Of a stretch of DNA of 64,000 nt, positions 5,839 through 63,882 are shown piece by piece. Numbering within the stretch: position 1 is the stretch's first letter; each line of letters opens with the position of its first letter. The notes beneath the pieces were generated by a model. The model was not told where the DNA came from, did not search any database, and saw nothing but the letters and a program-made list of their open reading frames with translations. A program made the translations under genes and the position numbers. Origin of the DNA: Alphaproteobacteria bacterium (GTDB lineage: Bacteria > Pseudomonadota > Alphaproteobacteria > CALKHQ01); contig CBDDFZ010000002.1 in the NCBI GenBank assembly GCA_965227515.1, positions 128,001 through 192,000 of the forward strand, read 5' to 3'.

Positions 5839-6768
5839 CTATTTCCGCGTGCTGAGGCGCAGGATGATGTCCTGGTCGTAATTGCCGAATCCCCGGCCGA
5901 ACAGGTTCATGCCGCCGGGATTGCGCGCATCCGGCCGGACACCGACCCGCACGCGGATGGAATGGTGATTGGCGACCTCCAGGTCCGCCAGCGAAACATC
6001 CGATATGCGCACGCCGTCGACATAGGTACCGTCGCCGTTGATCCGCCAGCTCTTCAACTTGCCGTACTGGGAGCCGGCGAGTTTCCACCAGGCGGGCGTG
6101 TAGACGCCGCGCTTGTCGCCGAAGTCCCCCGGCGAGGTCCAGGTGCCGGCGTCGATACCGTTCACCGATAGCGTGATGTCCGACGGCCAGTCGGCACTGG
6201 TGCCCGGCACCTCCGAACTCAGCTCCATTACGACTTCCAGTTGTTCGATCTCCTCCATGCTGGAGCGCGCGTTGTTCGGGAACTGGTACTCGACATAGCC
6301 GCGCGTGAACCACAGCAGTCCCGTCTTCATCCGCGCCGGCTCCAGGAAGGAGTCCGGCACGTCGAGCAGGCCGATGATGCCTTCGGTGGAGCAGAGCCCG
6401 CACGGCGCGCTGACCTCGCAACTGGTGTAGAGGCCGAGCGGCATCGACACCTCGATGGCATCGGATTTCAGGCTGTCCAGGTCCTCCTTGAAGACGACGA
6501 GCACCTCGTCGAAGGTTGATCGGCACACCTTCTGGTTGCCCTTGCGCGCCTTCTGCGTCTCCGACCGGACGAGCCCAGCGTCCTCCAGAATCTGCACGTT
6601 TGCCGAGACCGTGGACTGTGGAAGCGACAGTTTGGCCGCAATCTCGTTGACGTTCAGGGCACCGTTCTGGTGCAGCACCTTCAGGATGCCGACCCGTGGG
6701 GCGGAAGCGAGGCTCTTCAGGACATGCAGGCCATCTTCAGGGTCGATCACCAGGAAGTTGCGGCTCAT
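5839..6768 (-). CDS. ArsR-type winged-helix regulator with a large C-terminal beta-rich domain (COG4189-like)
   Basis: N-terminal LKSLAS..R..IL..L...LNVNEIA..L.LPQSTVS HTH; C-terminal PCGL, ELSSEVPG, WPSDI, WTSPGDFG..RG..TP.WW, GG.NLFG.GFGNY motifs. Confidence 0.85.
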   Translation of the reverse strand: MSRNFLVIDPEDGLHVLKSLASAPRVGILKVLHQNGALNVNEIAAKLSLPQSTVSANVQILEDAGLVRSETQKARKGNQKVCRSTFDEVLVVFKEDLDSLKSDAIEVSMPLGLYTSCEVSAPCGLCSTEGIIGLLDVPDSFLEPARMKTGLLWFTRGYVEYQFPNNARSSMEEIEQLEVVMELSSEVPGTSADWPSDITLSVNGIDAGTWTSPGDFGDKRGVYTPAWWKLAGSQYGKLKSWRINGDGTYVDGVRISDVSLADLEVANHHSIRVRVGVRPDARNPGGMNLFGRGFGNYDQDIILRLSTRK

Positions 6769-6994
6769 TAAGGCTCCATACAATTGTCGCGCGGTTTTGC
6801 GCGCGCAGCGTTTTTTGTTCCCATTTTGCCGATGCAGTCAATGGTGCGCTGACCGCCGAGCCGGTCCGCAGCCATGTTTGGTCATGGCTATGACCTGGCG
6901 CGCTCCAGCACGAAACACACCGCACGAGACGGCAATTCCGCCCGCATTCTCCAGCTTATTCGCACTTGTGGTGCAACCCAAGGCGGGGTAATCT

Positions 6995-7018
6995 AACTAG
7001 GAAAACGTTTTCCTAGTT
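6995..7018. promoter_or_regulatory. LacI-family operator (perfect 24-bp palindrome)
   Basis: AACTAGGAAAACGTTTTCCTAGTT is its own reverse complement, has a central CG, and lies about 95 bp upstream of the SBP at 7114. Confidence 0.85.
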
Positions 7019-7113
7019 TCCTAATGCGGTTCCTTCACGCAGTGCCGTCGAAGCCGACCATTGGCACCGGTGGGGATCGCGGAACGAAGAAATAACGACA
7101 AGCAAGGGAGGAC

Positions 7114-8382
7114 ATGATGGGCAACCAGCTATCAAGGCGCCGATTGATCACTTCGTCTGCGGCAGCATTTGGCGCGGGGTCCGTTGCCGCGCCTTTCATC
7201 AATCGTGCCCGTGCCCAGGAGAACAGGATCACGATTGGCATGGAGGTTGGATCGCCCTACGACACCTTCTACCGGGATCATGCCACCACCTTCACCGAGG
7301 CGACCGGTGTAGATGTGGAGTTCATCTCGATACCGCACGACAACATCCGCCAGCAGTTCGTGCTGGACGCATTGTCTGGCGCCGGCGGTTTCGACGTCTA
7401 CATTGCGGATCAGGTCTGGCTGCCTGAATTCTACGAGAAAGGGTTCATCACGGACCTGACCGATGCGGTCGCGGCAGACGACCTCGCCGATTTCTCCGCC
7501 ACGGCCATCGACACCGTCAGCTATCAGGGGGCGCTGGTGGCGTTGCCGATCATGGTCCACAACTGTGCCATGTACTGGCGGACCGATCTGCTGCAGGCGG
7601 CCGGGTTCGCCGCGCCTCCCGCAAGCTGGGAGGAATATCGCGAGGTTGCGCGCGCCACCACGTCCGGCGACGTGTGGGGCACGATGATTCTGTCCAAGCA
7701 GGGTATCGAGGCGGCAACCCGCCTGAACGCGTTCTATCAGCAGAGCGGCAGCGACATTGTCGATGCGAGCGGTAATGCCACTATCGACACAGAGGCGGGG
7801 CGCGCCGCGCTGGAGTTCATGACCGCCTTGGTGTTCGAAGACAAGGCTGCGCCGGAAGGCGTGCTCGAACTGCCGGACATGCAAGGTGCCTGGCTGGAGG
7901 GCGAGCTCGCGCTGGCGCCGGTATGGCCCTACCTCTATTCGCTGTCGAAGGAGCCGCTCGGCGACACATTCGCCATCGGCACGGCGCCGGGCAACCCGGA
8001 CGATGGCGGCACGGTCTATTCGTGGGGGTTCGCCGCAGCCGCCGGTGCGCCGAACCCAGACGCGGCACTCGAATGGGTGAGATGGGCCACCAGCACGGAG
8101 ACGCTGTATCAGTTCGGCAAGGAGTGGCTGAATCCGGTGCCGCGCCAGTCGGCCATCGATCTGGTCAACGCGGACGCCGACATTGGCGACGACGACAAGG
8201 CCGCGATCTCGGCCTTTGCCGCCTCCGCCGCCGCCGGCACCAGCATGCCGATGATCCCGCAATATGCGCAGCTTCTTGACGTGCTGGGCATCATGCAGTC
8301 GGGCGTCATGTCCGGTGCATTGACGATCGATGAGGCGCTGGCCGAGGGCCAGGAGCGCGCGGATGCCATCATGGCGGGCTGA
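7114..8382 (+). CDS. CUT1 sugar ABC transporter substrate-binding protein, Tat-exported
   Basis: GGGAGG RBS; SRRRLI twin-arginine signal ending ARA; ALP......YWRTDLL motif. Confidence 0.9.
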   Translation: MMGNQLSRRRLITSSAAAFGAGSVAAPFINRARAQENRITIGMEVGSPYDTFYRDHATTFTEATGVDVEFISIPHDNIRQQFVLDALSGAGGFDVYIADQVWLPEFYEKGFITDLTDAVAADDLADFSATAIDTVSYQGALVALPIMVHNCAMYWRTDLLQAAGFAAPPASWEEYREVARATTSGDVWGTMILSKQGIEAATRLNAFYQQSGSDIVDASGNATIDTEAGRAALEFMTALVFEDKAAPEGVLELPDMQGAWLEGELALAPVWPYLYSLSKEPLGDTFAIGTAPGNPDDGGTVYSWGFAAAAGAPNPDAALEWVRWATSTETLYQFGKEWLNPVPRQSAIDLVNADADIGDDDKAAISAFAASAAAGTSMPMIPQYAQLLDVLGIMQSGVMSGALTIDEALAEGQERADAIMAG

Positions 8383-52225: not shown

Positions 52226-53773
52226 ATGAAGGTCGTTGACGACACGGAGCTTCGGGAGGTCGTCTCCCGGCTGGGCGATGGTAGCACCGTCGCCATATCC
52301 GGCGCCGGCGGCGGCCTGCTGGAACCTGACGAGGCGTTCCGCGCGTTCGAGGCAGCGTTCCTGGACACAGGCCGCCCGCGTGGCCTGACGCTGGTGCACG
52401 CGCTGGGCATGGGCGACCGCAAGACCAAGGGTGTCAATCGCTTCGCCTATGAAGGCATGGTTTCCAAGGTCATCGGCGGGCACTGGATCTGGTCGCCGCG
52501 CATGCTGACGCTGGCCGAGGAGAACAAGATTGCGGCCTATTGCCTGCCGTCCGGGGTTCTGACCCATCTGTTTCGCGAGATCGGCGCGCGTCGGCCGGGG
52601 CTGTTCACCCATGTCGGATTGGGCACCTTCTGCGACCCGCGCCAGCAGGGTGGGCGCTGCAACGCCGCCGCCGCCGAGCCCATCGTCGAGCTGATGCGGA
52701 TCGACGGCCAGGACGTGCTCCGCTACCTGCCGTTCAACGTGGACGTGGCGGTCGTTCGCGGCACCGTTGCCGACACGCGGGGCAACATCAGCGCGCGGGA
52801 GGAGCCGGCCGATCTGGACAGCTATGCCATCGCGCTCGCCGCCAAGGCGTGCGGCGGCATCGTCATCGCGCAGGTGCGCGAGGTAGTGGATCGCGGTACC
52901 ATCAGGCCGCGCGAAGTCTCCGTGCCGGGCAATCTGGTGGACTATGTGCTGCCGTGCCCGGACCAGGCACAAACCTATCACGGGCGCTACGACCCGGCCC
53001 TGGCCGGGCTGGCCGATGACGGCACGGCGTTCCAGACCCCCGACACCCAGAACCTGGTGCGCCGCATCGTCGCCGAGCGGGCGGCAGCAGAACTGATCGA
53101 CGGCGCAACGGTCAATTTCGGTTTTGGCATGTCGTCGGGGGTCGCCGAAATCGTGTTGAAAGCCGGCACGCGGGACAACTACCGTTTCACCATCGAGCAG
53201 GGCATTCACGGCGGCCAACTCCTGACCGGCGACCTGTTCGGCATCGCGGCGCATCCGTCGGCGATCATGCCGTCGTGCCAGCAGTTCGACCTGTATTCCG
53301 GCGGCGGTCTCGACCAGACCTTCCTGGGGTTGGCCGAGGCGGACGAGAGCGGCTCGGTCAACGTGTCTCACTTCGGCGGCCAGATCAGCGGGCCGGGCGG
53401 CTTCATCGACATATCGCAGGCGGCCCATCGGGTCGTGTTCTGCGGCTCATTCGATGCCAAGGGCACACGGGTCGCGCTGGAAAATGGCAAGCTGCGGATT
53501 TCGTCGCACGGCGAGGTGCGCAAGTTCGTGTCCGCGGTCGAAGGCATCACATTCAGCGGCCCGGAAGCCCTGCGTCGTGGCCAACGGGTGAGCTATGTTA
53601 CCGAGCGCGCCGTCTTCGAGCTGACGCCGGAGGGCGTGGAACTGACCGAAGTTGCGCCGGGCGTGGATGTCAGGTCCGATGTGCTGGAGCGGATGGCGTT
53701 CGCGCCCATAGTGCGCGCACCGAGAACCATGGACCCGGACTGTTTCCGCGACGACGTCGCAGCCACGGGATAG
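52226..53773 (+). CDS. Family I fused CoA-transferase (YdiF/Pct-like)
   Basis: PG..T.VGLGTF.DPR..GG, N.GFG, TIEQG (catalytic Glu), G.VNVS.F, GPGGFIDISQ, YVTERAVF. Confidence 0.9.
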   Translation: MKVVDDTELREVVSRLGDGSTVAISGAGGGLLEPDEAFRAFEAAFLDTGRPRGLTLVHALGMGDRKTKGVNRFAYEGMVSKVIGGHWIWSPRMLTLAEENKIAAYCLPSGVLTHLFREIGARRPGLFTHVGLGTFCDPRQQGGRCNAAAAEPIVELMRIDGQDVLRYLPFNVDVAVVRGTVADTRGNISAREEPADLDSYAIALAAKACGGIVIAQVREVVDRGTIRPREVSVPGNLVDYVLPCPDQAQTYHGRYDPALAGLADDGTAFQTPDTQNLVRRIVAERAAAELIDGATVNFGFGMSSGVAEIVLKAGTRDNYRFTIEQGIHGGQLLTGDLFGIAAHPSAIMPSCQQFDLYSGGGLDQTFLGLAEADESGSVNVSHFGGQISGPGGFIDISQAAHRVVFCGSFDAKGTRVALENGKLRISSHGEVRKFVSAVEGITFSGPEALRRGQRVSYVTERAVFELTPEGVELTEVAPGVDVRSDVLERMAFAPIVRAPRTMDPDCFRDDVAATG

Positions 53774-53782
53774 CGGCAACCA

Positions 53783-55393
53783 ATGGCCAGCACAGGGTAC
53801 GATTACATCATCGCCGGCGGCGGCTCGGCCGGCTGCGTGCTGGCGGCGCGGCTCAGCGCCACAGGCGCCAGCGTGCTGCTGCTGGAGGCGGGATACCCGG
53901 ACAAGCATCCGCTGATCCACGTGCCCGCCGGCTTCACCAAGCTTTCGGGCCCGAAGGTCAACTGGGGCTACCGCACGGTGCCGCAGCAGCACCTGAACGA
54001 CCGTGAGATGTGGTACCCGCAGGGCAAGACCCTGGGCGGCGGCTCATCGATCAACGCGATGATCTATACCCGCGGCCACCGCAACGACTACGACGACTGG
54101 GCGGCCGCCGGCGCCGACGGCTGGTCGTACGAGGACGTGCTGCCATACTTCCGCAAGGCGGAAGACAATGTCCGCCTGTGCAACGCCTATCACGGCACAG
54201 GCGGGCCGCTGCGCGTCTCCGACCCCATCAGCCCGCTGCCGATCACCGCGACGTTCATTCGCGCCGCCCAACAGGCCGGGCTGCCTTACAGTGCCGACTT
54301 CAACGGCGCCGAGCAGGAAGGCGTCGGCTACCACCAGACGACCACCCGCGACGGGCGCCGGGGCAGTGCTGCGGTGTCGTACCTGCGCCCGGCGGCGGGC
54401 CGCAAGAACCTGACCGTCGTGACGCGCTGCCAGGTGTTGCGGGTGGTGGTGGAGAACGGCCGGGCGCGCCAGGTCGAGTTCAAGCCCCACGACGGCCCGG
54501 TCGCCCGCGCGACGGCCGACCGCGAGATCATCGTCACCGCCGGCGCCATCGGCTCGCCCAAGCTAATGATGCTGTCCGGCCTCGGCCCGGCGGACCACCT
54601 TCGGTCCCATGGCATCGACGTCCAGGCCGACATCCCCGGCGTCGGCGAGAATCTGCAGGACCACCTGGACTGCTACACCGTCTATGATCTCAACGGCCCG
54701 CACGCCTATTACGGTGTCGACCAGCATTTGAAACAGGCGGTCTGGGCGCTTCAGTACTGGCTGTTCAAGAACGGCCCGGTGACCACGAACATCGTGGAGG
54801 CCGGCGCGTTTGCGACCGTCGATGCCGACTCTCGCCAGCCCGACATCCAGCTTCACTTCCTGCCGGCATATGTCGTCGACCACGGGATGATGCGGATCAA
54901 GGGCTATGGCGTCAGTCTCTACTCGAACCTGTTGCGGCCGCGCAGCCGTGGCACGGTGCGGCTGCGCAGTGCCGATCCGGCCGAACATCCGCTGATCGAC
55001 CCCAACTACCTGGCCGACCCCTATGACCGCCGCATGGCGGTGGCGGGCCTGAAGCTGGCGCGCGAGGTGATGGCGCAGCCGGCGTTCGCGCCATTGTTGG
55101 AAAAGGAGCGCATGCCCGGCCCCGACGTGACGACCGACGAGGGCTTGAACGAGTATGTTCGCGAATGGGCGAAGACCGACTATCACCCGGTCGGCACCTG
55201 CAAGATGGGCAAGGACGAAATGGCGGTCGTGACGCCGGAACTGAAGGTCGTTGGGGTTGAGGGCTTGCGCATCTGCGACAGCTCGGTGATGCCGAACGAG
55301 ATCAGCGCCAACACCAACGCGCCAACCATCATGATCGCGGAGAAGGCGGCCGATATGATCCTGGGCACCGATACCGCCCCGGTCCATGCATAG
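53783..55393 (+). CDS. GMC-family flavin oxidoreductase (choline/sorbose dehydrogenase-like)
   Basis: GGGSAG, GKTLGGGSSINAM.Y.RG, VGENLQDH, YHPVGTCKMG, NTNAPTIMIAEK (His/Asn pair). Confidence 0.93.
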   Translation: MASTGYDYIIAGGGSAGCVLAARLSATGASVLLLEAGYPDKHPLIHVPAGFTKLSGPKVNWGYRTVPQQHLNDREMWYPQGKTLGGGSSINAMIYTRGHRNDYDDWAAAGADGWSYEDVLPYFRKAEDNVRLCNAYHGTGGPLRVSDPISPLPITATFIRAAQQAGLPYSADFNGAEQEGVGYHQTTTRDGRRGSAAVSYLRPAAGRKNLTVVTRCQVLRVVVENGRARQVEFKPHDGPVARATADREIIVTAGAIGSPKLMMLSGLGPADHLRSHGIDVQADIPGVGENLQDHLDCYTVYDLNGPHAYYGVDQHLKQAVWALQYWLFKNGPVTTNIVEAGAFATVDADSRQPDIQLHFLPAYVVDHGMMRIKGYGVSLYSNLLRPRSRGTVRLRSADPAEHPLIDPNYLADPYDRRMAVAGLKLAREVMAQPAFAPLLEKERMPGPDVTTDEGLNEYVREWAKTDYHPVGTCKMGKDEMAVVTPELKVVGVEGLRICDSSVMPNEISANTNAPTIMIAEKAADMILGTDTAPVHA

Positions 55394-55414
55394 GCGCCGC
55401 AGCAGGCCGGGCCG

Positions 55415-56203
55415 TTGACTCAGAAGATCTACGCCATAATCGGCTATCCAGTGGGGCAGGTGCGCTCGCCCGCGGTGTTCAACGCGCGCTTCGCGGCCGA
55501 GGGCGTGGACGCGATCATGATCCCGTTCCAGGTCGCGCCGGGCGATGTGGCGACGCTGCTGGATGGCTTGCGCAAGGCGGAGAATTGCGCAGGCGTCGTG
55601 GTGACCGTGCCCCACAAGGCCGCCGCCGCAGCGCTTGCCCGGCAGCGCAGCGCGCGTGTCGATTTGCTGGGTGCGGCGAACGTGCTGCGGCCGATCGAGG
55701 GCGGCTGGGAAGCCGATCTGTTCGACGGCGACGGCTTCGTTCGCGGGATGGCATCGCAGGGCCATGACGTGCGCGGCTGCTCGGTGGCTGTCGTTGGCGC
55801 TGGCGGCGCGGGGAGTGCCGTGGCCGAGGCGCTGCTGGCAGCGGGCGCGTCGGTCGCGCTGTCCGACATGGACGAGGCGCGTGCCGGGGCGGTGGTCGAC
55901 CGGCTTGCCACGGCGTTTGCCGACAGGATTGCGCTAGGCGGGCCCGACCGCGGCCATGCCATCGCCGTCAACGCCACGCCGGTCGGCATGGACGGCGACC
56001 CGAACATGCCCTTCGATCCGGCCGATCTGGACAAAGCGGCAATTGTCGCGGATGTCATCATGAAACCGGCGATCACGCCTCTGCTGCGCAAGGCATCCGA
56101 ACTGGGCATGACGACGCAGGAGGGCCGCCACATGCTGGATTGCCAGGCGGACGCGATCTGGTCATTCCTGCAGATGGCGCAAGCCGATGCGACATCGGCA
56201 TGA
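55415..56203 (+). CDS. Shikimate dehydrogenase-family (AroE-like) oxidoreductase
   Basis: IG.PV.Q..SP, VTVPHK, GAAN, DG.GF, GAGGAG, NATPVG; atypical QVRSP in place of HS.SP. Confidence 0.88.
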   Translation: MTQKIYAIIGYPVGQVRSPAVFNARFAAEGVDAIMIPFQVAPGDVATLLDGLRKAENCAGVVVTVPHKAAAAALARQRSARVDLLGAANVLRPIEGGWEADLFDGDGFVRGMASQGHDVRGCSVAVVGAGGAGSAVAEALLAAGASVALSDMDEARAGAVVDRLATAFADRIALGGPDRGHAIAVNATPVGMDGDPNMPFDPADLDKAAIVADVIMKPAITPLLRKASELGMTTQEGRHMLDCQADAIWSFLQMAQADATSA

Positions 56204-56224
56204 TGCGGGCGTCCGGGTGCGGCG

Positions 56225-57226
56225 CTATGCTCGGTTTGCCGCGAGCAGGGCCTGTGGCGCCGGCGCGTGCCAGACCACCTGATAGGACTCGATCACGTTC
56301 TGGCGCGTGACCGCCAGTCCCGGCAGCGCGATCCATGGCGGCGGCTGTTCGTCGACCAGCGCCAGCAAGGTTGCGGTTGCCGCCGCGATGCCCTGAGCGT
56401 ACGGCTGTTGTGCGCCGATCCCTTTGATCATGTTGCCGGAGGCGAGTTCGATCGCCGCATCGTTGCCCAGGTCGACCGTGGTCACCGGGATGTCCAGCGC
56501 GCGCTTGCGCAGCATTGGCACCGCTTGCATCGCCGGTTCGTCCCAGACCACGAACAGCCCGGCACAACCGGCGGAGGTGTCGAGCAGCGCCGCCGTCGCC
56601 CGGCCGGCATCGGCAACATCGGCGAACTTCTGCTGTGCCAACTGGACATCGGGTCGGTTGGCCGCCATCCACTTGCGAAACGCGATCTCGCGCTCATTGG
56701 TGACGAAGAAGTCGGCGCCGTAGGTCAGCATGCCGATGGTCGACCCCTGGTCGACGTGCTCCGACAGCAGGGATGCGCTGATCTGGCCGAGGCCGAAATT
56801 GTCCGCTGAAACGACACTGGCGTAGTTGGTGCCCGGCAGCAGCCCCGTCGGGACGTTGTCGACCAATATCAATTTGATACCGGCGCGCGAGACCTGGTGA
56901 TGGGCGTCGGCCACGGCGGTGTTGCCGATCGGTATGCTGATGATCGCATCCGGCGCTTCGCCGACCAGCCGTTGCAGCTCGCGGATCTGCTTGTCGGCGC
57001 AAAACTGGCAGTCGACCACATCCACCACCGCCGCCGCATAGCGGCCGAGCGTGGCGACGATGCCGGCGATCTGTTGGCGCGACCAGTCGCTCTCGGTGGT
57101 ATGCAGAACGACCGCCACCTTGAACTGGCTTCGCTGCGCCAGCGCCGCGTTCTCCTCGGAGATACTGACATGCTCCGATGGAACGGCGCGCTCACCATGC
57201 GGTCCAAGGCCGGCTATCGACATCAT
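56225..57226 (-). CDS. Signal-peptide-less paralog of the sugar-binding protein at 59892 (putative cytoplasmic sensor)
   Basis: Shares GP.GE, DWS, IISIP, DNVP.G, Y.SVVSADN.G.G, DFFVT..R, VWD.PA, T.DLG, GAQ.PY.QG with 59892-61022; no hydrophobic N-terminus; ATGA-coupled to the ROK gene. Confidence 0.8.
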   Translation of the reverse strand: MMSIAGLGPHGERAVPSEHVSISEENAALAQRSQFKVAVVLHTTESDWSRQQIAGIVATLGRYAAAVVDVVDCQFCADKQIRELQRLVGEAPDAIISIPIGNTAVADAHHQVSRAGIKLILVDNVPTGLLPGTNYASVVSADNFGLGQISASLLSEHVDQGSTIGMLTYGADFFVTNEREIAFRKWMAANRPDVQLAQQKFADVADAGRATAALLDTSAGCAGLFVVWDEPAMQAVPMLRKRALDIPVTTVDLGNDAAIELASGNMIKGIGAQQPYAQGIAAATATLLALVDEQPPPWIALPGLAVTRQNVIESYQVVWHAPAPQALLAANRA

Positions 57227-58662
57227 GTCAGTTTCCCACCCTCGAGCTGGTTGCGCGCGGCCGGCGGCGGCGCTGGGGTCGTGCCATCGTCCGCGGCGTC
57301 GGTTGTCGCCTGCGACAGCCGTGCCGCGAATTCCGGATGATCCAGTGGTGAGCCGTAGGCAATCCAGTTCTCCAACGACGGACCGGCAAACAGGGCGCCG
57401 ACGGCGACTTCGGCCGCGCCCAGAAGCCCGGCTGACCCGCCCATCTGCGATTTGACGATGCGAAGCTCGCGCGTGGTCAGCGGGTGGGCGTGCAGATACA
57501 CTGCTTGGCGCACCGCCGACAGCATCACGTCGCCGGTCTGCACGATGTCGCCGCCAAGCACGATGGTCGACGGATTGACCGTGTTGGCGACTGCGGCCAG
57601 TGCGACGCCAATCATCTGCCCTCGGCGCGCAAGCAGCTCGGTACAGAAGCTGTCGCCCAGTTGCGCCGCCATGCCGACGTCGTTGGCGGTGATCTCGCCC
57701 GACGCCTCTAGCATGCGCGCGAGTTGCGGGCTTTGCCCGTCTCGTGCGGCGTTCGCACCATCGCGCGCGATCGCGTCACCGCCGGCAACGATCTCCAGGC
57801 AACCGGTATTGCCGCAATGGCATACCTCGTCGCTGTTCGGGTCTTGCAGGATGTGTCCCAGCAAACCGCCGGCGCCTTGCGCGCCCCGGACCAGCCGTCC
57901 ATCGGCAAACAGCGCCGTGCTGATCCCGCGGCCAAGCTTCACGAACAAGAAATTGTCGCTGTCTTGCGCGTTGCCGGCCTTGCGCTCGCCCAGCGTCATG
58001 CATTCCACGGCACTGCGCACCCAGACCGGCGCGCGGAAGCGGGCGGCCAACTGCTCGACGAAGTCGAACTCCCACCACGACGGGTCGAAATGGAATACCG
58101 GCGAAGCGAAGGGCTCGCCGGCCGACAGCTCGACCGGGCCCGGCACCGCGACACCGATCGCCCACACGTCGCGATCCGCCTGGTGCTGTTCCAGAGCCCA
58201 GTCGAACAGCGTCATCAACCGACCGAGAACCGCCTGGGGGCCGGTCGACAGCTCGATCGCCTCGTGATGCTCGACAAGCAAGCGCCCATTCAGGTCCGCG
58301 ACGCCGACGCCGAGCACGGATCTGTCGAGGAAGGCGACCAGGATCAGGCCTGAGCCGGCGCGAAACCTGATCAGGCGAGGGGCCCGTCCGCCTTGCGCGG
58401 GGCCAAGCGTGTCCTCGGCCAGCAGGCCGTATCGGGTCAGCGTGGTCAGCCGATCGACGATCGTCGCGCGTCCCAGGCCGGTCGCCTGCTCAAGTGCCAG
58501 GCGCGTGCTCGCGTCCCCGTCCCGCACCAGCGTCAGTATGCCGGCCAGGCTTTGCCGGGTTGCCTCAACACGTCTGGGCCTGATCTCCCCGACCTCTGCG
58601 CGCGGGTTTCGGGTTTGCTGAAACTGAGCGGGAGCGCGGGTCGATTTGCTCTGTTTTGCCAT
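57223..58662 (-). CDS. ROK-family transcriptional regulator
   Basis: N-terminal TR..L...TGL.RATI HTH and GGRAP; IGVAVPGPV; Zn motif GH...CHCGNTGCLE; IVLGG; AGLLGAA. Confidence 0.9.
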   Translation of the reverse strand: MAKQSKSTRAPAQFQQTRNPRAEVGEIRPRRVEATRQSLAGILTLVRDGDASTRLALEQATGLGRATIVDRLTTLTRYGLLAEDTLGPAQGGRAPRLIRFRAGSGLILVAFLDRSVLGVGVADLNGRLLVEHHEAIELSTGPQAVLGRLMTLFDWALEQHQADRDVWAIGVAVPGPVELSAGEPFASPVFHFDPSWWEFDFVEQLAARFRAPVWVRSAVECMTLGERKAGNAQDSDNFLFVKLGRGISTALFADGRLVRGAQGAGGLLGHILQDPNSDEVCHCGNTGCLEIVAGGDAIARDGANAARDGQSPQLARMLEASGEITANDVGMAAQLGDSFCTELLARRGQMIGVALAAVANTVNPSTIVLGGDIVQTGDVMLSAVRQAVYLHAHPLTTRELRIVKSQMGGSAGLLGAAEVAVGALFAGPSLENWIAYGSPLDHPEFAARLSQATTDAADDGTTPAPPPAARNQLEGGKLT

Positions 58663-58889
58663 CAGGGCGCTTGCGACTCACTCTTCACCTGAGCTGGTGA
58701 CCATAGCCCGCTTGTCCAACAATCCAAGTTCCAACCCGAAATCGCGACGCGCGCGTTTGGGACCGGTTCCGCAGCCACACGCACGCAAACGCGCCGGCAG
58801 GCGCTTCCCGGTTCCGGCCGGGGACCGGCCCAGACCGTAGGGTTCAGGCGGCATTATGCCGAAGCCGATCCGTTTTCGCAGCAAATTCA

Positions 58890-58912
58890 TTGACTAATGC
58901 AGATTTTCTGCA
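58890..58912 (+). promoter_or_regulatory. Candidate -35 box with overlapping palindrome (possible ROK operator)
   Basis: TTGACT at 58890 followed by TGCAGA-TTT-TCTGCA (58898-58912) in the AT-rich divergent intergenic region. Confidence 0.45.
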
Positions 58913-58961
58913 ATACGGTTGCGATGTTGTGCAAAAAAAGACGCGGGAGGCAGGCGGCCAC

Positions 58962-59813
58962 ATGACCGGCTGGAAACTTGGCTATCAGGTGAATTGTTGG
59001 GGTGCCCTGGGCGGTGACGGGGTCGGCGTGACCTCGGTCAAGGACCTCTTCTATCGGACCTTCGCCGACATGGGCGCCGCCTTCTCCGAAGCCGCGGACG
59101 CCGGTTTCACCGGTGTCGAGCTTTTCGACGGCAATCTGGTCGACTACGCCGACGATGTGGACGGTTTCCGCCGGTTGCTGACCGATACCGGCGTGTCCCT
59201 GATCGGCGTCTATTCAGGTGGCAACTACATCTATCCCGATATCCTGGAGGAGGAGTTGTGGCGGGCCGAGAAGGCCGCCAGCGTCGCCGCCCAGTGCGGG
59301 GCGGAGTTCCTGGTGGTCGGCGGCGGCGCTCAACGCGCGGGCGGCATCCGCGCCGGCGACCACGAGCAATTGGCGCGGGCGCTCGATCAGGTCTGCACCA
59401 TCGCCGAGCGGCACGGCCTTACGGCGCAGTTCCATCCGCACCTGACGACGATTGCGGAGAACCCGGAGCAGGTCGACCGCGTGTTCGCGCTGTCGCGGAT
59501 CGGGTTCTGCCCGGATACCGCGCATCTGGCGGCCGCGGGCGGCGATCCGGCGGCGATGATCCGCCAGCATTTCGACCGCATCTCCTATGTCCATCTCAAG
59601 GACTTGCGCCGTCAGCCGTTCGCGTTCCTGCCCCTCGGCGAGGGTGAGTTGGACCTGCGCGGGGTCGTGCGCACGCTGGCGGACCTGAACTACGCCGGCT
59701 GGGTGACCGTGGAGCTCGATTCACATCCCGACCCGCTTGCGGCGGCACACACCAGTGCGCGCTTTCTGGCATCCGCGATGGGCGACAACGGCATCGAGCG
59801 TGCCGATGCGTGA
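58962..59813 (+). CDS. Sugar phosphate isomerase/epimerase-family TIM barrel (IolE-like; candidate LgdB-type eliminase/hydratase)
   Basis: GF.GVE, FHPH, PDTAH, YVHLKD, PLGEG, Y.GW.TVELD; co-operonic with lgdA. Confidence 0.82.
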   Translation: MTGWKLGYQVNCWGALGGDGVGVTSVKDLFYRTFADMGAAFSEAADAGFTGVELFDGNLVDYADDVDGFRRLLTDTGVSLIGVYSGGNYIYPDILEEELWRAEKAASVAAQCGAEFLVVGGGAQRAGGIRAGDHEQLARALDQVCTIAERHGLTAQFHPHLTTIAENPEQVDRVFALSRIGFCPDTAHLAAAGGDPAAMIRQHFDRISYVHLKDLRRQPFAFLPLGEGELDLRGVVRTLADLNYAGWVTVELDSHPDPLAAAHTSARFLASAMGDNGIERADA

Positions 59814-59891: not shown

Positions 59892-61022
59892 ATGATGAGC
59901 AACCGCAAACTGCAAGATGGGGTTGGGATCATCGCCATGGTGGCGATGGCGACAGCCGTGACGACCACGATGGCGTCCGCCGATCCGCGTGCGGCGCTGG
60001 ATGAGCTGCAGCAGACCGTGCTGAGTACCGGCCCCGGCGGCGAGCAGCCGACCGCGGCGAGCGAGGTGGTGCTGAGTGACGACGAGGTCGCCCAGGTCCA
60101 GGCCATGGGGGCGACCGCCGCGCTGGTCTTCCACTATGGCGGCAACGACTGGTCGCAGGCCCAGCTTGACGGGATGACCGCGCGGTTCGCCGAGCTCGGC
60201 ATTGAGGTCGTCGCGGTCACCGATGCCGGCTTCAAGCCCGAAAAGCAGGTGTCCGACATCGAGACCGTGCTGGCGCAGGAGCCGGACATCATCGTGTCGA
60301 TCCCGGTGGACCCGGTTGCCACGGCGGATGCCTATCAGCGGGCCGCCGATTCCGGCGTGCACCTGGTCTTCATGGACAATGTGCCCGCCGGCATGACCGT
60401 GGGCGAAGACTACGTATCCGTCGTTTCCGCCGACAATTACGGCAACGGCGTTGCGTCCGCGCACCTGATGGCGGAGGCGCTGGACAGTGCCGGCAAGGTC
60501 GGCGTGATCTTTCATGCCGCCGACTTCTTCGTCACCCGCCAGCGTTACGACGCGTTCGTCGCGACCGTCGCCAGCGACTATCCGGACATTGAGATCGTGG
60601 TCGAAACCGGGATCGGCGGACCCGACTTCTCCGGCGAAGCCGAGCGGGCGGCGTCGGCCATGCTGACCGCCAACAGCGACATCGATGGCATCTGGGCGGT
60701 CTGGGACGTGCCGGCCGAGGGCGTTATCGCGGCGGCCCGCGTGGCCGGCCGCGACGATCTGGTCATCACCACCATCGACCTGGGCGAAAACGTCGCCATC
60801 AGCATCGCGCAAGAGAGCTTCGTCTACGGTCTCGGTGCCCAGCGGCCATACGACCAGGGCGTGACGGAGGCCAACCTTGCCGCCTATGCGCTTTTGGGCA
60901 AGGCGGCGCCGGACTATGTCGCGCTGCCTGCCTTGCCGGTCAGCCGTGACAATCTGATCGATGCGTGGAGCACGGTCTATCACGCCGATGCGCCCGACAC
61001 CGTGCAGAGTTCCATGGAATAG
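59892..61022 (+). CDS. CUT2 sugar ABC substrate-binding protein (candidate levoglucosan-binding protein)
   Basis: GGGAGG RBS; hydrophobic signal ending ASA; type 1 PBP motifs; adjacent to lgdA. Confidence 0.85.
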   Translation: MMSNRKLQDGVGIIAMVAMATAVTTTMASADPRAALDELQQTVLSTGPGGEQPTAASEVVLSDDEVAQVQAMGATAALVFHYGGNDWSQAQLDGMTARFAELGIEVVAVTDAGFKPEKQVSDIETVLAQEPDIIVSIPVDPVATADAYQRAADSGVHLVFMDNVPAGMTVGEDYVSVVSADNYGNGVASAHLMAEALDSAGKVGVIFHAADFFVTRQRYDAFVATVASDYPDIEIVVETGIGGPDFSGEAERAASAMLTANSDIDGIWAVWDVPAEGVIAAARVAGRDDLVITTIDLGENVAISIAQESFVYGLGAQRPYDQGVTEANLAAYALLGKAAPDYVALPALPVSRDNLIDAWSTVYHADAPDTVQSSME

Positions 61023-61118: not shown

Positions 61119-62285
61119 ATGAGGACTATCAATATCGGCATGATCGGCAGCGGTTTCATGGGCAAGGCCCACTCGCTCGCCTACGCCGCCATGCCGATGT
61201 TCTTCTGGCCGGCACCCGCCATTCCCGTGCGTGCCATGGTGGCGGACGTGAACGAGGACCTGGCGCGCGACGCCGCCCAACGCTACGGGTACGCGCGTCA
61301 TACCGGGGACTGGCGGCAGATCATCGATGACGACGCTATCGACGTCGTCGATATCGCGACGCCCAATGACCTGCATGAGGAGATCGCGGTTGCCGCGGCA
61401 CAGGCCGGCAAGCACGTCTTCTGCGAGAAGCCGCTGGCACGGACCGCGGCGGAGAGCCGCCGCATGCTGGATGCCGTGAATGCCGCCGGCGTCACCCACA
61501 TGGTGGCATTCAACTATCGCCGCACGCCGGCGGTGACGACCGCTGCGCGTATGATCGCCAAGGGTGAGATCGGTGAGATCCTGAGTTTTCGCGGCACCTA
61601 TCTGCAGGACTGGTCGGCGGACCCCGATGCGCCGCTCTCGTGGCGGTTCCAGAAGTCGGTCGCCGGCTCCGGCGCGATGGGCGACATCGGCACCCACGTG
61701 ATCGATATGGCGCGCATGCTGGTTGGCGAGATTGTCGCGGTCAACGCGATCGCCAAGACCTATGTCCCGACGCGCCCGATTCAGGCCGGCGGGCTCGACA
61801 AGCTGGGCGCGGCCGAGAAGGGCGGCGGCGACACGCCGCGCGGCGAGGTCGATGTCGACGACGAGATCCTGACCCTGGTGCGCTTTGCCAATGGTGCGAC
61901 CGGCACCATCGAGGCCACCCGCAACGCCCATGGCCGCAACAACTTCCTGACCTTCGAAGTGCACGGCACCACGGGCTCGATCCTGTTCGACTACGAGCGC
62001 CGCGACGAACTGCAGATCTGTTTCGCCGATGACCCGGCGGACCGGAAGGGCTTCCGTACGGTCTTCACGGGTCCGTCCCATGCCTATGGCGAGGCATTGT
62101 GGCCGATCCCGGCGCTGGGCATTGGCTATGGCGAAACCAAGATCATCGAGTGCTATGACTTCATGAAGGCCATCGTCGACGGCACCCAACCGTCTCCCAA
62201 TTTCGAGGATGGCCATCGTATCGCGGTGATCACCGACGCCATTCTGGCTTCGGCCGAACAGAAGTGCTGGCTCGATGTCGCCTGA
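61119..62285 (+). CDS. lgdA: Levoglucosan dehydrogenase (Gfo/Idh/MocA family)
   Basis: GFMGKAHSLAYAAMPMFFWPAPA, CEKPLART, AFNYRRTPAV, FRGTYLQDWSADP..PLSWRFQK, EATRNAHGRNN, YERRDELQ, LWPIPALGIGYGETKIIE; these match my recollection of the characterised Pseudarthrobacter LGDH. Confidence 0.85.
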   Translation: MRTINIGMIGSGFMGKAHSLAYAAMPMFFWPAPAIPVRAMVADVNEDLARDAAQRYGYARHTGDWRQIIDDDAIDVVDIATPNDLHEEIAVAAAQAGKHVFCEKPLARTAAESRRMLDAVNAAGVTHMVAFNYRRTPAVTTAARMIAKGEIGEILSFRGTYLQDWSADPDAPLSWRFQKSVAGSGAMGDIGTHVIDMARMLVGEIVAVNAIAKTYVPTRPIQAGGLDKLGAAEKGGGDTPRGEVDVDDEILTLVRFANGATGTIEATRNAHGRNNFLTFEVHGTTGSILFDYERRDELQICFADDPADRKGFRTVFTGPSHAYGEALWPIPALGIGYGETKIIECYDFMKAIVDGTQPSPNFEDGHRIAVITDAILASAEQKCWLDVA

Positions 62286-62286
62286 T

Positions 62287-63882
62287 ATGACGGCGGACAT
62301 GCGCACCGATAACGTGGCTGCGGCGGCCGGCGACGCGCTGGCCGTCGATATGGTGGGTATCTCGAAGGCTTTTGGCGGGGTGCAGGCGTTGAAGGACGTC
62401 AGTTTCTCGGCGGAGTTCGGTGAAATCCACGCCCTGGTCGGCGAGAATGGCGCCGGCAAGTCGACGATCCTGAAGATCTTGCGCGGTGTGCATGTGCCCG
62501 ACAGCGGCGACATCAGCATCGCTGGCGTGCCGCTGACCACCCACGCCGCGGAGGCCTCCCGCCAGATGGGCGTGGCGATGATCTTCCAGGAGATGAGCCT
62601 GGTGCCATCGCTGAGCGTCGCGCAGAACGTGTTCCTGGCCCGCGAAGCGCTGAATGGCATCGGCCTGATCGACGACCGCCAAGCCGAGCGGCGGACTCGT
62701 GCGTTGTTCGAGCAACTGGGCGTGAAGATCGATCCGCGCGCGCCGGTCAGCAGCCTGAGCACCGGTCAGCGCCAGTTGACGGAGATCGCCAAGGCCCTGT
62801 CACAGGACGCGCGGGTCCTGGTGCTCGACGAACCGACGTCGGCGCTGAGTGCCAGCGAGACCGACGTGCTGTTCGCCTTCCTGCAGCGGATTCGCTCAGA
62901 GGGCGTATGTGTGATCTACGTGTCGCACCGGATGGAAGAGGTGTTTGCAATCGCCGACCGGGCAACTGTTTTGCGCGACGGCAGGCACATCATCACGGTG
63001 CCGCTTGCCGAACTGACCATGGAGGAGATGGTCCAGCACATCGTCGGGCGCCGCGTCGGGGCCTTCGCCTGGCGCGCGCACGATGTCGATCGCACCGCTA
63101 CGCCCTTGCTTTCGGTCACCGGGGTTAGTGGGGTGGAAAAGCCCACGGACGTCTCATTCGATCTCCATGCCGGCGAGATTTTGGGGATCGGCGGCCTGTT
63201 GGGCAGCGGGCGCAGCGAGCTGGCGCGCGTGTTGTGCGGCATCGACCCTCTGCGGGCAGGAACCATCCGACTGCGCGGGACGGAGATCCGTGTCTCGACC
63301 CCGCGCGACGCCATCGCACGGGGCATCGCCTTGATCCCCGAGGACCGGGTCCGCCAGGGCCTGATCCCACAGCACGATATCGGCGACAATGTGCGCCTGA
63401 CGGTGCTCGAGCGCATCTGCACCAAGGGCTTCGTCGACGATCGCAGGGGCAGGGCGCTGGTTGACGACCTGATGGGACAACTGCGGATCAAGGCGACGTC
63501 GCAGGACACCCTGGTGCGCAACCTCTCCGGCGGCAACCAGCAAAAGGTGGTGCTCGCCAAATGGCTGGCGGCGACCCCGGACATTCTGGTGCTGGACGAA
63601 CCGACAGCCGGTGTCGACATCGGCAGCAAGGTCGAGATCGTCGACTTGATCCGGGCGATGGCCGATGCCGGCAAGGGCATCATCTTCATCTCGTCGGAGC
63701 TGGCCGAGCTGCTGGCGGCCAGCGACCGCATCGTGGTCCTCAACGACGGTCGGCTGGCCAGGGAGATCAGCCGCGAGGAGATCAATGGCTGGTCGGCGGA
63801 CCTGACCGAGCCGGATGCACGCATTGCGGCTTCGGAGCATGGTTTGCAATTGGCGATGCAGCAGGCGGCCGGTCATGCCTGA
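62287..63882 (+). CDS. CUT2 sugar ABC ATP-binding protein (two ATPase domains, RbsA-like)
   Basis: GENGAGKST; LDEPT; YVSHR; IPEDR; LSGGNQQK; ISSEL; start uncertain (62275-62299). Confidence 0.93.
   Translation: MTADMRTDNVAAAAGDALAVDMVGISKAFGGVQALKDVSFSAEFGEIHALVGENGAGKSTILKILRGVHVPDSGDISIAGVPLTTHAAEASRQMGVAMIFQEMSLVPSLSVAQNVFLAREALNGIGLIDDRQAERRTRALFEQLGVKIDPRAPVSSLSTGQRQLTEIAKALSQDARVLVLDEPTSALSASETDVLFAFLQRIRSEGVCVIYVSHRMEEVFAIADRATVLRDGRHIITVPLAELTMEEMVQHIVGRRVGAFAWRAHDVDRTATPLLSVTGVSGVEKPTDVSFDLHAGEILGIGGLLGSGRSELARVLCGIDPLRAGTIRLRGTEIRVSTPRDAIARGIALIPEDRVRQGLIPQHDIGDNVRLTVLERICTKGFVDDRRGRALVDDLMGQLRIKATSQDTLVRNLSGGNQQKVVLAKWLAATPDILVLDEPTAGVDIGSKVEIVDLIRAMADAGKGIIFISSELAELLAASDRIVVLNDGRLAREISREEINGWSADLTEPDARIAASEHGLQLAMQQAAGHA

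Follow-up and report, generated by a model that had tools for sequence, protein, structure and literature searches.

The analysis presented here suggests that the levoglucosan (lgd) operon in the window, the whole 64,000-nt stretch of alphaproteobacterial DNA under study, is probably controlled by a two-protein sugar sensor-repressor. In this arrangement a ROK-family regulator would bind DNA, and an unexported copy of a transporter's substrate-binding protein (SBP), called SBPcyt in this report, would sense the sugar, which follows the logic of AmiC-AmiR and NasS-NasT on a ROK scaffold. The reading draws on sequence comparison, a predicted complex and analogy with those systems. A first-pass annotation of the same DNA had read the locus in this way, as a degenerate ROK protein coupled to a cytoplasmic SBP copy in a candidate sensing system, and that overall reading is supported by computation alone.

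The ROK and SBPcyt genes are divergent to an operon that encodes a TIM-barrel protein, the exported SBP, LgdA and an ABC ATPase, and a permease gene lies after the ATPase gene just past the window end (Table 1). The identification of LgdA is based on NCBIfam NF052479, which it matches at 702.3 bits (cut-off 650). The TIM-barrel ORF opens at a TTG at 58890, but the ATG at 58962, which is preceded by GGGAGG, is the likelier start. The overlap of the ROK stop with the 333-aa ORF as ATGA, described in the first-pass annotation, was seen at the same place, implying translational coupling of the two genes as far as the sequence can indicate it. SBPcyt is not encoded with a permease or ATPase; it is paired with the ROK gene and divergent from a transporter operon that has its own exported SBP. 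In public records the two proteins carry just the labels 'ROK family protein' and 'substrate-binding domain-containing protein', and the names in the protein atlas are generic.

Table 1. Coordinates of the features discussed, given as positions in the window.
Feature	Position	Strand	Basis or remark
Unexported PBP type I (Peripla_BP_4) protein SBPcyt, 333 aa	56225..57226	-	ORF, Pfam, BLASTP
ATGA overlap of ROK stop (TGA) and SBPcyt start (ATG)	57223..57226	-	Read from sequence
ROK-family regulator, 479 aa	57223..58662	-	ORF, Pfam and alignment to solved ROK regulators
Shine-Dalgarno-like GAGGGTGGGA	57234..57243	-	7 nt upstream of SBPcyt start, within the end of the ROK coding region
Divergent intergenic control region, ROK gene / lgd operon	58663..58961	n/a	
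Perfect palindrome TGCAGA-TTT-TCTGCA, candidate ROK operator only	58898..58912	n/a	
Xylose-isomerase-like TIM-barrel protein, gene 1 of divergent operon	58962..59813	+	
Exported substrate-binding protein of ABC transporter, 376 aa, hydrophobic leader	59892..61022	+	
Levoglucosan dehydrogenase LgdA	61119..62285	+	NCBIfam NF052479
Sugar ABC transporter ATPase, two nucleotide-binding domains	62275..63882	+	

SBPcyt is related to the exported receptor of the transporter. Both match Pfam Peripla_BP_4 (PF13407; cut-off 35.1), SBPcyt at 100.3 bits and the exported SBP at 147.3 bits, and BLASTP aligns them at 35% identity over 332 columns (E 9e-75). The four shared motif pairs pointed out earlier (SVVSADNFG/SVVSADNYG, DFFVT in both, VWDEPA/VWDVPA and GAQQPYAQG/GAQRPYDQG) are all visible in that alignment. 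Matches of SBPcyt to solved ribose-type binding proteins are weak (E 5e-8 and weaker). The alignment with the exported paralogue begins at residue 42 of the latter, past its hydrophobic leader, and no other start codon lies between the SBPcyt start and the in-frame stop ahead of it, so the N-terminus cannot be extended. Both observations agree with the claim that the 333-aa ORF begins at the mature domain and has no signal peptide. Orthologs of SBPcyt with 54-67% identity are encoded in 80 alphaproteobacterial loci, and many of the 81 unexported sequences have an in-frame stop 1-30 codons ahead of the start. Leaders were judged by eye and by the hydropathy maximum over the first 45 residues, which is 0.68 in SBPcyt as compared to 2.27 in the exported paralogue; the family medians are 1.15 (unexported, n=81) and 2.10 (exported, n=60), with ranges that overlap. 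By eye and hydropathy no leader was found in any of the 81 unexported-family sequences, neither on SBPcyt nor on any of its 80 orthologs, whereas the exported paralogues that were inspected have leaders. A hidden export signal is ruled out by the in-frame stop, the lack of a leader in the family and the hydropathy values, and by these computations SBPcyt is placed in the cytoplasm.

The unexported family also has features of its own. All 81 members have MxIxGLGPHGE as the N-terminus, with GLGPHGE invariant, and SBPcyt starts about 35 residues ahead of the PBP core. Pfam gives PF13407 alone for SBPcyt, with no DNA-binding domain. When the two families were compared, 45 positions were identical between them with a conservation of at least 95% in each, including D47, W48, N124, D142, N143, F173, R179, W228, D229, D252 and Q273; these shared positions may correspond to the ligand pocket. 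Because the conserved core positions of the receptor family are kept, SBPcyt probably binds a sugar.

It is very unlikely that SBPcyt has no regulatory role and is instead a cytoplasmic pathway enzyme or binding protein, or a decaying duplicate that shares the transcript of the regulator. Unassigned pathway steps do exist, since lgdB2 and lgdC homologues are absent beside lgdA in several degraders, according to portions of Kaur et al. (PMC10066097). However, the reading frames are intact, identity is 54-67% over the 80 loci and 53 columns are invariant in a 29-sequence alignment, which rules out a gene in decay. Additionally, the positions that SBPcyt keeps are those common to the transport receptor, enzymes with a PBP fold are rare, and the complex prediction with the ROK protein, described below, passed.

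The ROK protein matches Pfam ROK (PF00480) over residues 156-420 at 153.7 bits (cut-off 22.9) and does not reach the NCBIfam equivalog cut-offs for NagC (141.5 vs 650) or Mlc (125.5 vs 530). From residue 24-29 onward it is colinear with the solved ROK repressors 1z05, Mlc (1z6r) and Lmo0178. The HTH proposed for it earlier is upheld by this colinearity, which covers the N-terminal winged-helix region; matches to the Pfam helix-turn-helix models are sub-threshold (E 0.055 and 0.11). A GLGRA...GGRAPR segment is conserved in 29 ROK orthologs, and EHHE at residues 131-134 is a lineage-specific motif.

The canonical sugar site of this protein is gone. In the alignment to 1z05, PVWVRSAVE stands opposite PVFVANDTR and GLLGH opposite GELGH, which confirms that PVWVRSAVE and GGLLGH are degenerate sugar motifs as the first-pass annotation had stated. 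The canonical Asn-Asp is replaced by S217/A218 and the Glu of ExGH by L267. This loss is family-wide and not peculiar to the window copy: among 73 ROK orthologs the Asn-equivalent is N in four, the Asp-equivalent is D in none, and the Glu of ExGH is found in none (L in 46, M in 26, Q in 1). In the ROK regulators studied by Kazanov et al. (PMC3553997), the corresponding Asn and Glu are absolutely conserved and the family largely retains the zinc motif, as given in part of that paper. The zinc site was said to be kept, and this is true of the window copy, which has H270 and CHCGNTGCLE (opposite CHCGNYGCLE in 1z05), but in the family it is a minority state. All three Cys are present in 22 of the 73 orthologs, the window copy included; the His is kept in 39 and lost in 34, and the zinc loop is deleted in 51.

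The substitutes for the sugar-binding residues are conserved, not drifting (R-S-[S/G]-V-[Q/E] and G-[L/M]-[I/L]-G), so a ROK pocket remodelled for a less polar ligand has to be considered. In that case the ROK protein itself would sense the inducer, perhaps the bicyclic anhydrosugar or its 3-keto product, and SBPcyt would play an accessory part, such as buffering substrate in the cytoplasm or carrying it to LgdA, and would touch the ROK protein or not. An acidic residue (Glu or Asp) still follows the former zinc motif in 71 of the 73 orthologs, which fits such a pocket. However, the deletion of the zinc loop in most orthologs and the loss of the His in nearly half speak against it, and this alternative is judged unlikely.

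The pairing of the two genes argues in the same direction. A ROK gene lies directly upstream of the SBPcyt ortholog, on the same strand, in 77 of the 80 loci; the other three are cut by contig ends, with at most 205 nt upstream. The spacing in the 77 loci ranges from -4 to 196 nt, with the -4 overlap in 13 and gaps of 2-196 nt in the others. This strict pairing (77/77 informative loci) counts against a ROK protein that senses the inducer unaided, and translational coupling to a regulator would not be needed for a simple buffer. The two proteins are never fused; a stop lies between the ORFs in all 77 informative loci, which rules out a single frameshifted gene. Among long homologues there were three ROK-PBP fusions, each a single cluster, and two of them (P0128 and P0129) contain garbled, apparently out-of-frame stretches. 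LgdA (at least 60% identity) is present in 39 of the 42 loci that have at least 6.5 kb on each side, and a TIM-barrel ortholog is adjacent in 40 of these 42. The pair is away from any lgd gene in two of them, both Inquilinus, and one more has no LgdA within the flank. Among 401 genomes sampled evenly from the class, SBPcyt (E 1e-90 or better) and LgdA above cut-off were found in the same 2 genomes.

A complex of the ROK protein and SBPcyt was predicted with a score of 0.87, the median of three runs (0.81, 0.87, 0.88), compared to 0.00 for the best of three controls. The mark used was passed by 116 of 157 solved complexes, compared to 2 of 215 mismatched pairs, in a calibration that is only approximate here because own alignments were used. 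SBPcyt had a pLDDT of at least 91 in these runs, and contacts agreed by at least 76% between runs. The confident predicted contacts include the near-invariant ROK residues E131, H132, H133, E134, W155 and S410 and residues 5-13 of SBPcyt, so that the two lineage-specific motifs, EHHE and GLGPHGE, touch each other in the model. When 34 positions invariant solely in the unexported family were compared with the 30 SBPcyt interface positions, 8 were in common (hypergeometric 0.006, a rough value as positions and sequences are not independent). On the ROK side, overall conservation of the interface did not significantly exceed that of the remaining domain (0.68 vs 0.63, one-sided Mann-Whitney p 0.20), which is a point in favor of inducer sensing by the ROK protein itself, whereas the difference between the complex and control scores is a point against it. 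G8, P9, G11 and E12 of the GLGPHGE segment are common to the exported family, and GLGPHGE is also kept in relatives that are inserted in ATPases, described next. The segment may thus serve some other contact.

In 14 cluster representatives the two nucleotide-binding domains of a sugar ABC ATPase have a PBP domain of the same clade between them, and in three further representatives such a PBP domain lies ahead of a degenerate second ATPase domain. GLGPHGE is present in all ATPase-fused sequences inspected. In a quick tree the ATPase-fused and ROK-partnered forms make up one clade (SH-aLRT 100), and insertion between ABC ATPase domains places this clade in the cytoplasm. A metagenome scan with the fusion protein P0121 did not recover the contig of P0121 itself; its hits were all ordinary operons of ATPase, permease and SBP, in which the SBP shows 40-44% identity to SBPcyt, and a plasmid search with P0127 found no fusion. 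These relatives raise the idea that SBPcyt ties the ROK protein to transporter activity, instead of or besides free sugar, by docking on both the ABC ATPase and the ROK protein, which would be held or freed by the transport state as in Mlc-PtsG or MalT-MalK. The shared clade and the retained GLGPHGE are consistent with this, but contact of a stand-alone SBPcyt with the window ATPase is conjecture here, and the fused domains could equally be ligand-sensing domains for trans-inhibition, as would suit the two-protein sensor-repressor. Control through the transporter is considered improbable.

The sensor-repressor reading would work as follows. The ROK protein would provide DNA binding and oligomerisation, presumably as a repressor and not as an activator, and the translationally coupled SBPcyt would probably bind imported sugar inside the cell, most likely levoglucosan itself. 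In the predicted complex both lobes of SBPcyt, together with its N-terminal GLGPHGE segment, meet the ROK domain at the EHHE hairpin and at neighbouring surfaces of the two ROK lobes. Closure of SBPcyt on its ligand would then alter or break this contact, by a change of shape or by dissociation of the complex, and so alter ROK binding at the divergent promoter and induce the operon.

The closest known systems are NasS-NasT of Paracoccus denitrificans and AmiC-AmiR of Pseudomonas aeruginosa. According to parts of PMC3795266, in both a cytoplasmic SBP homologue without an export signal, with ligand residues kept, forms a sensor complex with a separate regulator that has no sensing domain, and ligand frees or activates the regulator. 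The locus described here is similar in that a cytoplasmic SBP homologue is co-encoded, beside the pathway, with a regulator that lacks a working sensor site. However, NasT and AmiR are ANTAR RNA-binding antiterminators and not ROK-family DNA-binding proteins, their ligands are nitrate/nitrite and amides and not a sugar, and their complexes are ligand-dependent whereas the complex here is a predicted one. The sensors also differ: NasS is NrtA-like, from another SBP family, and AmiC is LivJ-like.

Within the ROK family, E. coli Mlc takes its signal not from sugar but from contact with the EIIB domain of PtsG, and solved Mlc structures match the window ROK protein over its full length (E 1e-25 to 1e-26). 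The Mlc partner is a membrane-tethered PTS domain that acts by sequestration, whereas the partner here would be a soluble, co-translated Venus-flytrap protein that goes with an ABC transporter and not a PTS. As in LacI/GalR repressors, a PBP type I sugar fold would be the cytoplasmic sensor of a transcription factor; the common fold of LacI sugar domains and periplasmic binding proteins is noted in part of Kazanov et al. (PMC3553997). In LacI/GalR, however, the HTH and the PBP fold are fused in one chain, whereas SBPcyt has no DNA-binding domain and a separate ROK protein would bind DNA. With canonical ROK repressors (NagC, Bacillus XylR, Thermotoga ROK regulators) the protein shares a winged-helix N-terminus, a ROK domain and a gene divergent from a sugar catabolism or transport operon. 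In canonical ROK regulators, as covered in part by the same paper (PMC3553997), sugar is bound in the ROK cleft by the conserved Asn and Glu and the zinc motif is kept, whereas this lineage has the Glu in 0/73, the Asn in 4/73 and the Cys triad in 22/73, plus an obligate partner gene.

A literature search with limited coverage of subscription journals found no published account of an unexported SBP as the partner of a ROK regulator. ROK transcription factors are mentioned in passing among lgdA neighbours in the part of Kaur et al. (PMC10066097) that was available. If the reading is true, a dedicated soluble Venus-flytrap subunit would be a third mode of control for the ROK family, after cleft-bound sugar (NagC type) and capture by a PTS domain (Mlc), and the AmiC-AmiR / NasS-NasT principle would extend beyond RNA-binding antiterminators to a family of DNA-binding repressors. 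The regulator of alphaproteobacterial levoglucosan catabolism would then be identified, and its parts could serve in a levoglucosan biosensor, of interest for the use of pyrolysis sugars. The locus would also be a warning that leaderless proteins annotated as transporter binding proteins can be regulators, and the relatives inserted in ATPases hint at a new kind of regulatory domain in ABC importers. A broader proposal, advanced tentatively and with more doubt than belief, is that the pair represents an undescribed class of split transcription factor. In this class the ROK protein would have lost its own site for sugar and zinc and handed sensing over to a cytoplasmic receptor copy, giving uptake and induction a common specificity. 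The unexported clade, also built into ABC ATPases between or after the nucleotide-binding domains, would then point to a wider, so far unrecognised strategy of feedback on both transcription and import by a cytoplasmic receptor copy.

The control region between the divergent genes gave more limited results. A consensus scan of 56100-59000 found no sigma-70 consensus promoter. The palindrome listed in Table 1 sits 2 nt downstream of a TTGACT hexamer (58890-58895), but it is not beyond chance since three palindromes with 6-nt arms occur within the 299-nt intergenic region. The half-site GCANAAG/CTTNTGC has no exact copy in the intergenic region of the window; in the orthologous loci it occurs at 4.42 per kb in the 400 nt upstream of the ROK gene compared to 0.55 per kb elsewhere in the loci.

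The best-supported reading of this gene pair, on support that is all computational, is a two-protein sensor-regulator in which a cytoplasmic copy of the receptor would bind sugar once it is imported and would control, through protein contact, a ROK DNA-binding subunit lacking the canonical sugar site. The two open reading frames claimed by the first-pass annotation are both present (see table), and the ROK stop and partner start share ATGA as it had described, with a Shine-Dalgarno-like run, GAGGGTGGGA, preceding the overlap. The partner is 35% identical over 332 columns (BLASTP, E 9e-75) to the exported binding protein of the divergent operon, and every motif pair quoted as evidence that the two are collinear occurs in that alignment, which begins at residue 42 of the exported protein, past its hydrophobic leader. 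The absence of a signal peptide on the partner was also borne out: its frame opens at the first start codon following an in-frame stop, so no hidden leader is possible upstream.

Features of the ROK-partner region
Feature	Position	Strand	Remarks
CoA-transferase family protein, GMC oxidoreductase, shikimate-dehydrogenase-like protein	52226-56203	+	other flank of the pair; the shikimate-dehydrogenase-like gene is convergent with the partner gene
Partner, Peripla_BP_4 protein, 333 aa	56225-57226	-	PF13407, 100.3 bits
ROK protein, 479 aa	57223-58662	-	Pfam ROK, 153.7 bits
Perfect palindrome TGCAGA-TTT-TCTGCA	58898-58912		beside a TTGACT hexamer
Xylose-isomerase-like TIM barrel	likely start ATG 58962		divergent operon
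Exported binding protein	59892-61022		divergent operon
Levoglucosan dehydrogenase (LgdA)			divergent operon; NCBIfam NF052479, 702.3 bits against a cut-off of 650
Two-domain ABC ATPase			divergent operon
Permease, then IlvD/Edd-family dehydratase	just past window end		permease in divergent operon

Alignment of the ROK protein with the solved regulator 1z05 placed PVWVRSAVE opposite PVFVANDTR and GLLGH opposite GELGH, confirming that the sugar motifs are degenerate. Among 73 ROK orthologs (72 loci and the window), the Asn-equivalent position is N in only 4, the Asp-equivalent is D in none, and the Glu of ExGH is likewise found in none (L 46, M 26, Q 1), with the His of that motif retained in 39. 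Kazanov et al. (PMC3553997) report that the corresponding Asn and Glu are invariant in the ROK regulators that they studied, and describe the zinc motif as largely conserved family-wide. The zinc site was said to be retained, which holds for the window (CHCGNTGCLE opposite CHCGNYGCLE in 1z05) and not for the family: all three Cys are present in 22/73 orthologs and the loop carrying the triad is deleted in the remaining 51, making the window's zinc site the minority state. The residues that replace the sugar ligands are themselves conserved, and this fits a rival explanation in which a remodelled ROK pocket does the sensing and the binding protein is an accessory.

Contact between the two proteins, as the two-protein sensor-regulator would require, was examined by the complex prediction that the first-pass annotation had proposed, using alignments of 29 orthologs per chain. 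The predicted complex scored 0.87 (median of 0.81, 0.87 and 0.88) compared to 0.00 for the best of three controls, with a partner pLDDT of at least 91 and contact agreement between runs of at least 76%. In the calibration of the tool this mark was reached by 116 of 157 solved complexes and 2 of 215 mismatched pairs, counts that apply only roughly here because custom alignments were used. We know of no solved ROK-PBP complex, so it seems unlikely that the pass came from a memorised structure. The confident predicted contacts of the ROK protein are 116, 118, 128-135, 151-152, 155, 159, 229-230, 321-335 (five residues), 372-376 (three residues) and 406-410, and those of the partner are 3-19, 102-103, 127-133, 144, 172, 177-188 and 297. 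Judged by reading them against the ROK and PBP folds rather than from coordinates, the contacts appear to lie on both lobes of each protein; the former sugar residues of ROK are not among the confident contacts. Near-invariant, lineage-specific motifs are predicted to touch, namely E131, H132, H133, E134 and W155 of ROK and GLGPHGE of the partner. Of 34 positions invariant in the unexported family only, 8 fall among 30 interface positions (rough p 0.006); weighing against this enrichment, the ROK interface is not more conserved than the rest of its domain (0.68 vs 0.63, p 0.20).

Mlc, another ROK protein, is controlled by a transport protein, which resembles the ROK side of the proposed system. 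In its overall logic the proposed system is like NasS-NasT and AmiC-AmiR (PMC3795266). A ROK regulator paired with a PBP partner was not found in the literature searched, which included few subscription journals.

The partner belongs to a large family, mostly of about 335 aa, with 60-82% identity within the 120 best matches; where relatives are named at source, they are called "substrate-binding domain-containing protein" or "ribose transport system substrate-binding protein". The N-terminus MxIxGLGPHGE is found in 81/81 members, and many of the loci have an in-frame stop 1-30 codons before the start. Among the 60 exported paralogues, lengths run from 370 to 376 aa, and the 12 inspected all have typical leaders. 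The hydropathy maximum of the first 45 residues has a median of 1.15 in unexported vs 2.10 in exported proteins, with overlapping ranges. Both families share 45 identical positions conserved at 95% or more, including D47, W48, N124, D142, N143, F173, R179, W228, D229, D252 and Q273. Polar and aromatic residues of this kind line sugar clefts in this fold. We infer from sequence that the 45 positions may form the ligand pocket; the nearest solved structures are distant.

Other rivals are that the partner is coupled to the ABC ATPase and that its role is non-regulatory. The long homologues number 24 (509-1621 aa, binding-protein domain match E 1e-30 or better). In 14 of them, cluster representatives that are sugar ABC ATPases of 759-926 aa (P0121-P0123, P0125-P0127, P0130-P0134, P0138-P0140), the domain sits between the two nucleotide-binding domains; it is 46-56% identical to the window partner, and GLGPHGE is present in the four read. 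These relatives lend independent support to a cytoplasmic location of the partner. To our knowledge, insertion of a PBP domain into the ATPase of an ABC importer has not been described; such a domain might serve as a sugar sensor in the cytoplasm for trans-inhibition. Three more (P0135-P0137, 533 aa) carry an unexported-type domain ahead of an apparently degenerate second ATPase domain, judged from the sequence of P0135. In P0144 (864 aa, cluster of 14 members), an exported-type domain comes after a complete two-domain ATPase and begins, without a leader, exactly at the mature N-terminus. Five, within P0141-P0146, are hybrid histidine kinases (HisKA, HATPase, receiver) whose PBP domain is 35-40% identical and C-terminal in the three where it was located (P0141, P0142, P0145); two of the kinases are named Neobacillus at source. 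The one remaining is a ROK fusion, P0124 (638 aa, on a 69-kb contig), with more canonical ROK motifs (VWMDNEV, GDIGH, CRCGNTGCLE); in the broader lineage the sugar site may have eroded gradually.

In a quick maximum-likelihood tree (69 rows: 27 of 81 unexported, 20 of 60 exported, 22 long forms; midpoint root only), a branch with SH-aLRT 100 separated the leaderless forms (stand-alone, ATPase-inserted and ROK-fused) from the exported proteins; P0144 and the three kinase domains in the tree fell on the exported side. In the same midpoint-rooted tree, the ROK-partnered proteins fell together to one side of a branch (support 89).

Upstream of ROK in orthologous loci (L008-L082), a half-site GCANAAG/CTTNTGC occurs at 4.42 per kb within 400 nt compared to 0.55 elsewhere in the loci, an 8-fold enrichment. 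At least one copy is present in 63/72 loci and at least two in 45/72, often as inverted pairs 8-10 nt apart (e.g. CTTTTGC-N9-GCAAAAG), and this repeat is probably the operator of this ROK lineage. The half-sites lie near a conserved AAGTCAA (TTGACTT when read along the operon strand). The window's control region has no exact copy of the half-site; its perfect palindrome is a candidate operator only.

A scan of the genome collection for the partner gave 213 encoding stretches, and the best 80 loci were retained. Among those that carry a name, nearly all come from Alphaproteobacteria (Mesorhizobium, Devosia, Bauldia, Rhizobium, Agrobacterium, Paracoccaceae, Limimaricola, Inquilinus, Acidisoma and others). 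Of these best 80, 77 have a ROK gene immediately upstream in the same orientation, and the other 3 have at most 205 nt of sequence upstream. Gaps range from -4 nt (13 loci, with the same ATGA overlap) to 196 nt, and in the paired loci of this set the two frames are always separated by a stop, which speaks against the suggestion that the split is a frameshift in a routinely fused protein. In L062 (Limimaricola cinnabarinus LL-001, 6640-7910) the ROK match is in two adjacent pieces with the partner intact, which could be a frameshift or assembly error.

Co-occurrence with LgdA was found as anticipated: of the 42 loci flanked by 6.5 kb or more on each side, 39 encode LgdA (at least 60% identity) and 40 the TIM barrel. 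The three LgdA exceptions are one locus lacking LgdA in its flank and two from Inquilinus, in which the pair adjoins a different ABC system and a Gfo/Idh/MocA oxidoreductase. Those two (L058 and L073, 1-8000) have no lgd gene within 8 kb of the pair, which in L058 lies beside an SBP_bac_1-type ABC system, a LysR regulator and the oxidoreductase; the Inquilinus pair may control a distant locus or respond to a different sugar.

Of 401 evenly sampled genomes of the class, 2 encode the partner (E 1e-90 or better), and the same two have LgdA above cut-off. The partner gene is found on plasmids of Shinella sumterensis, Agrobacterium tumefaciens, Sinorhizobium medicae, Ensifer adhaerens and others, and the two plasmid records examined (A. 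tumefaciens and M. loti) contain the pair under generic annotation only. A more divergent pair (52% identity) on the Mesorhizobium loti NZP2037 plasmid (L168) is divergent from a related cluster of TIM barrel, SBP, ABC ATPase and permease that also holds gluconate 2-dehydrogenase subunit-3-like, GMC oxidoreductase and Gfo/Idh/MocA proteins; this cluster may represent a related 3-keto-sugar pathway with a regulator of the same type.
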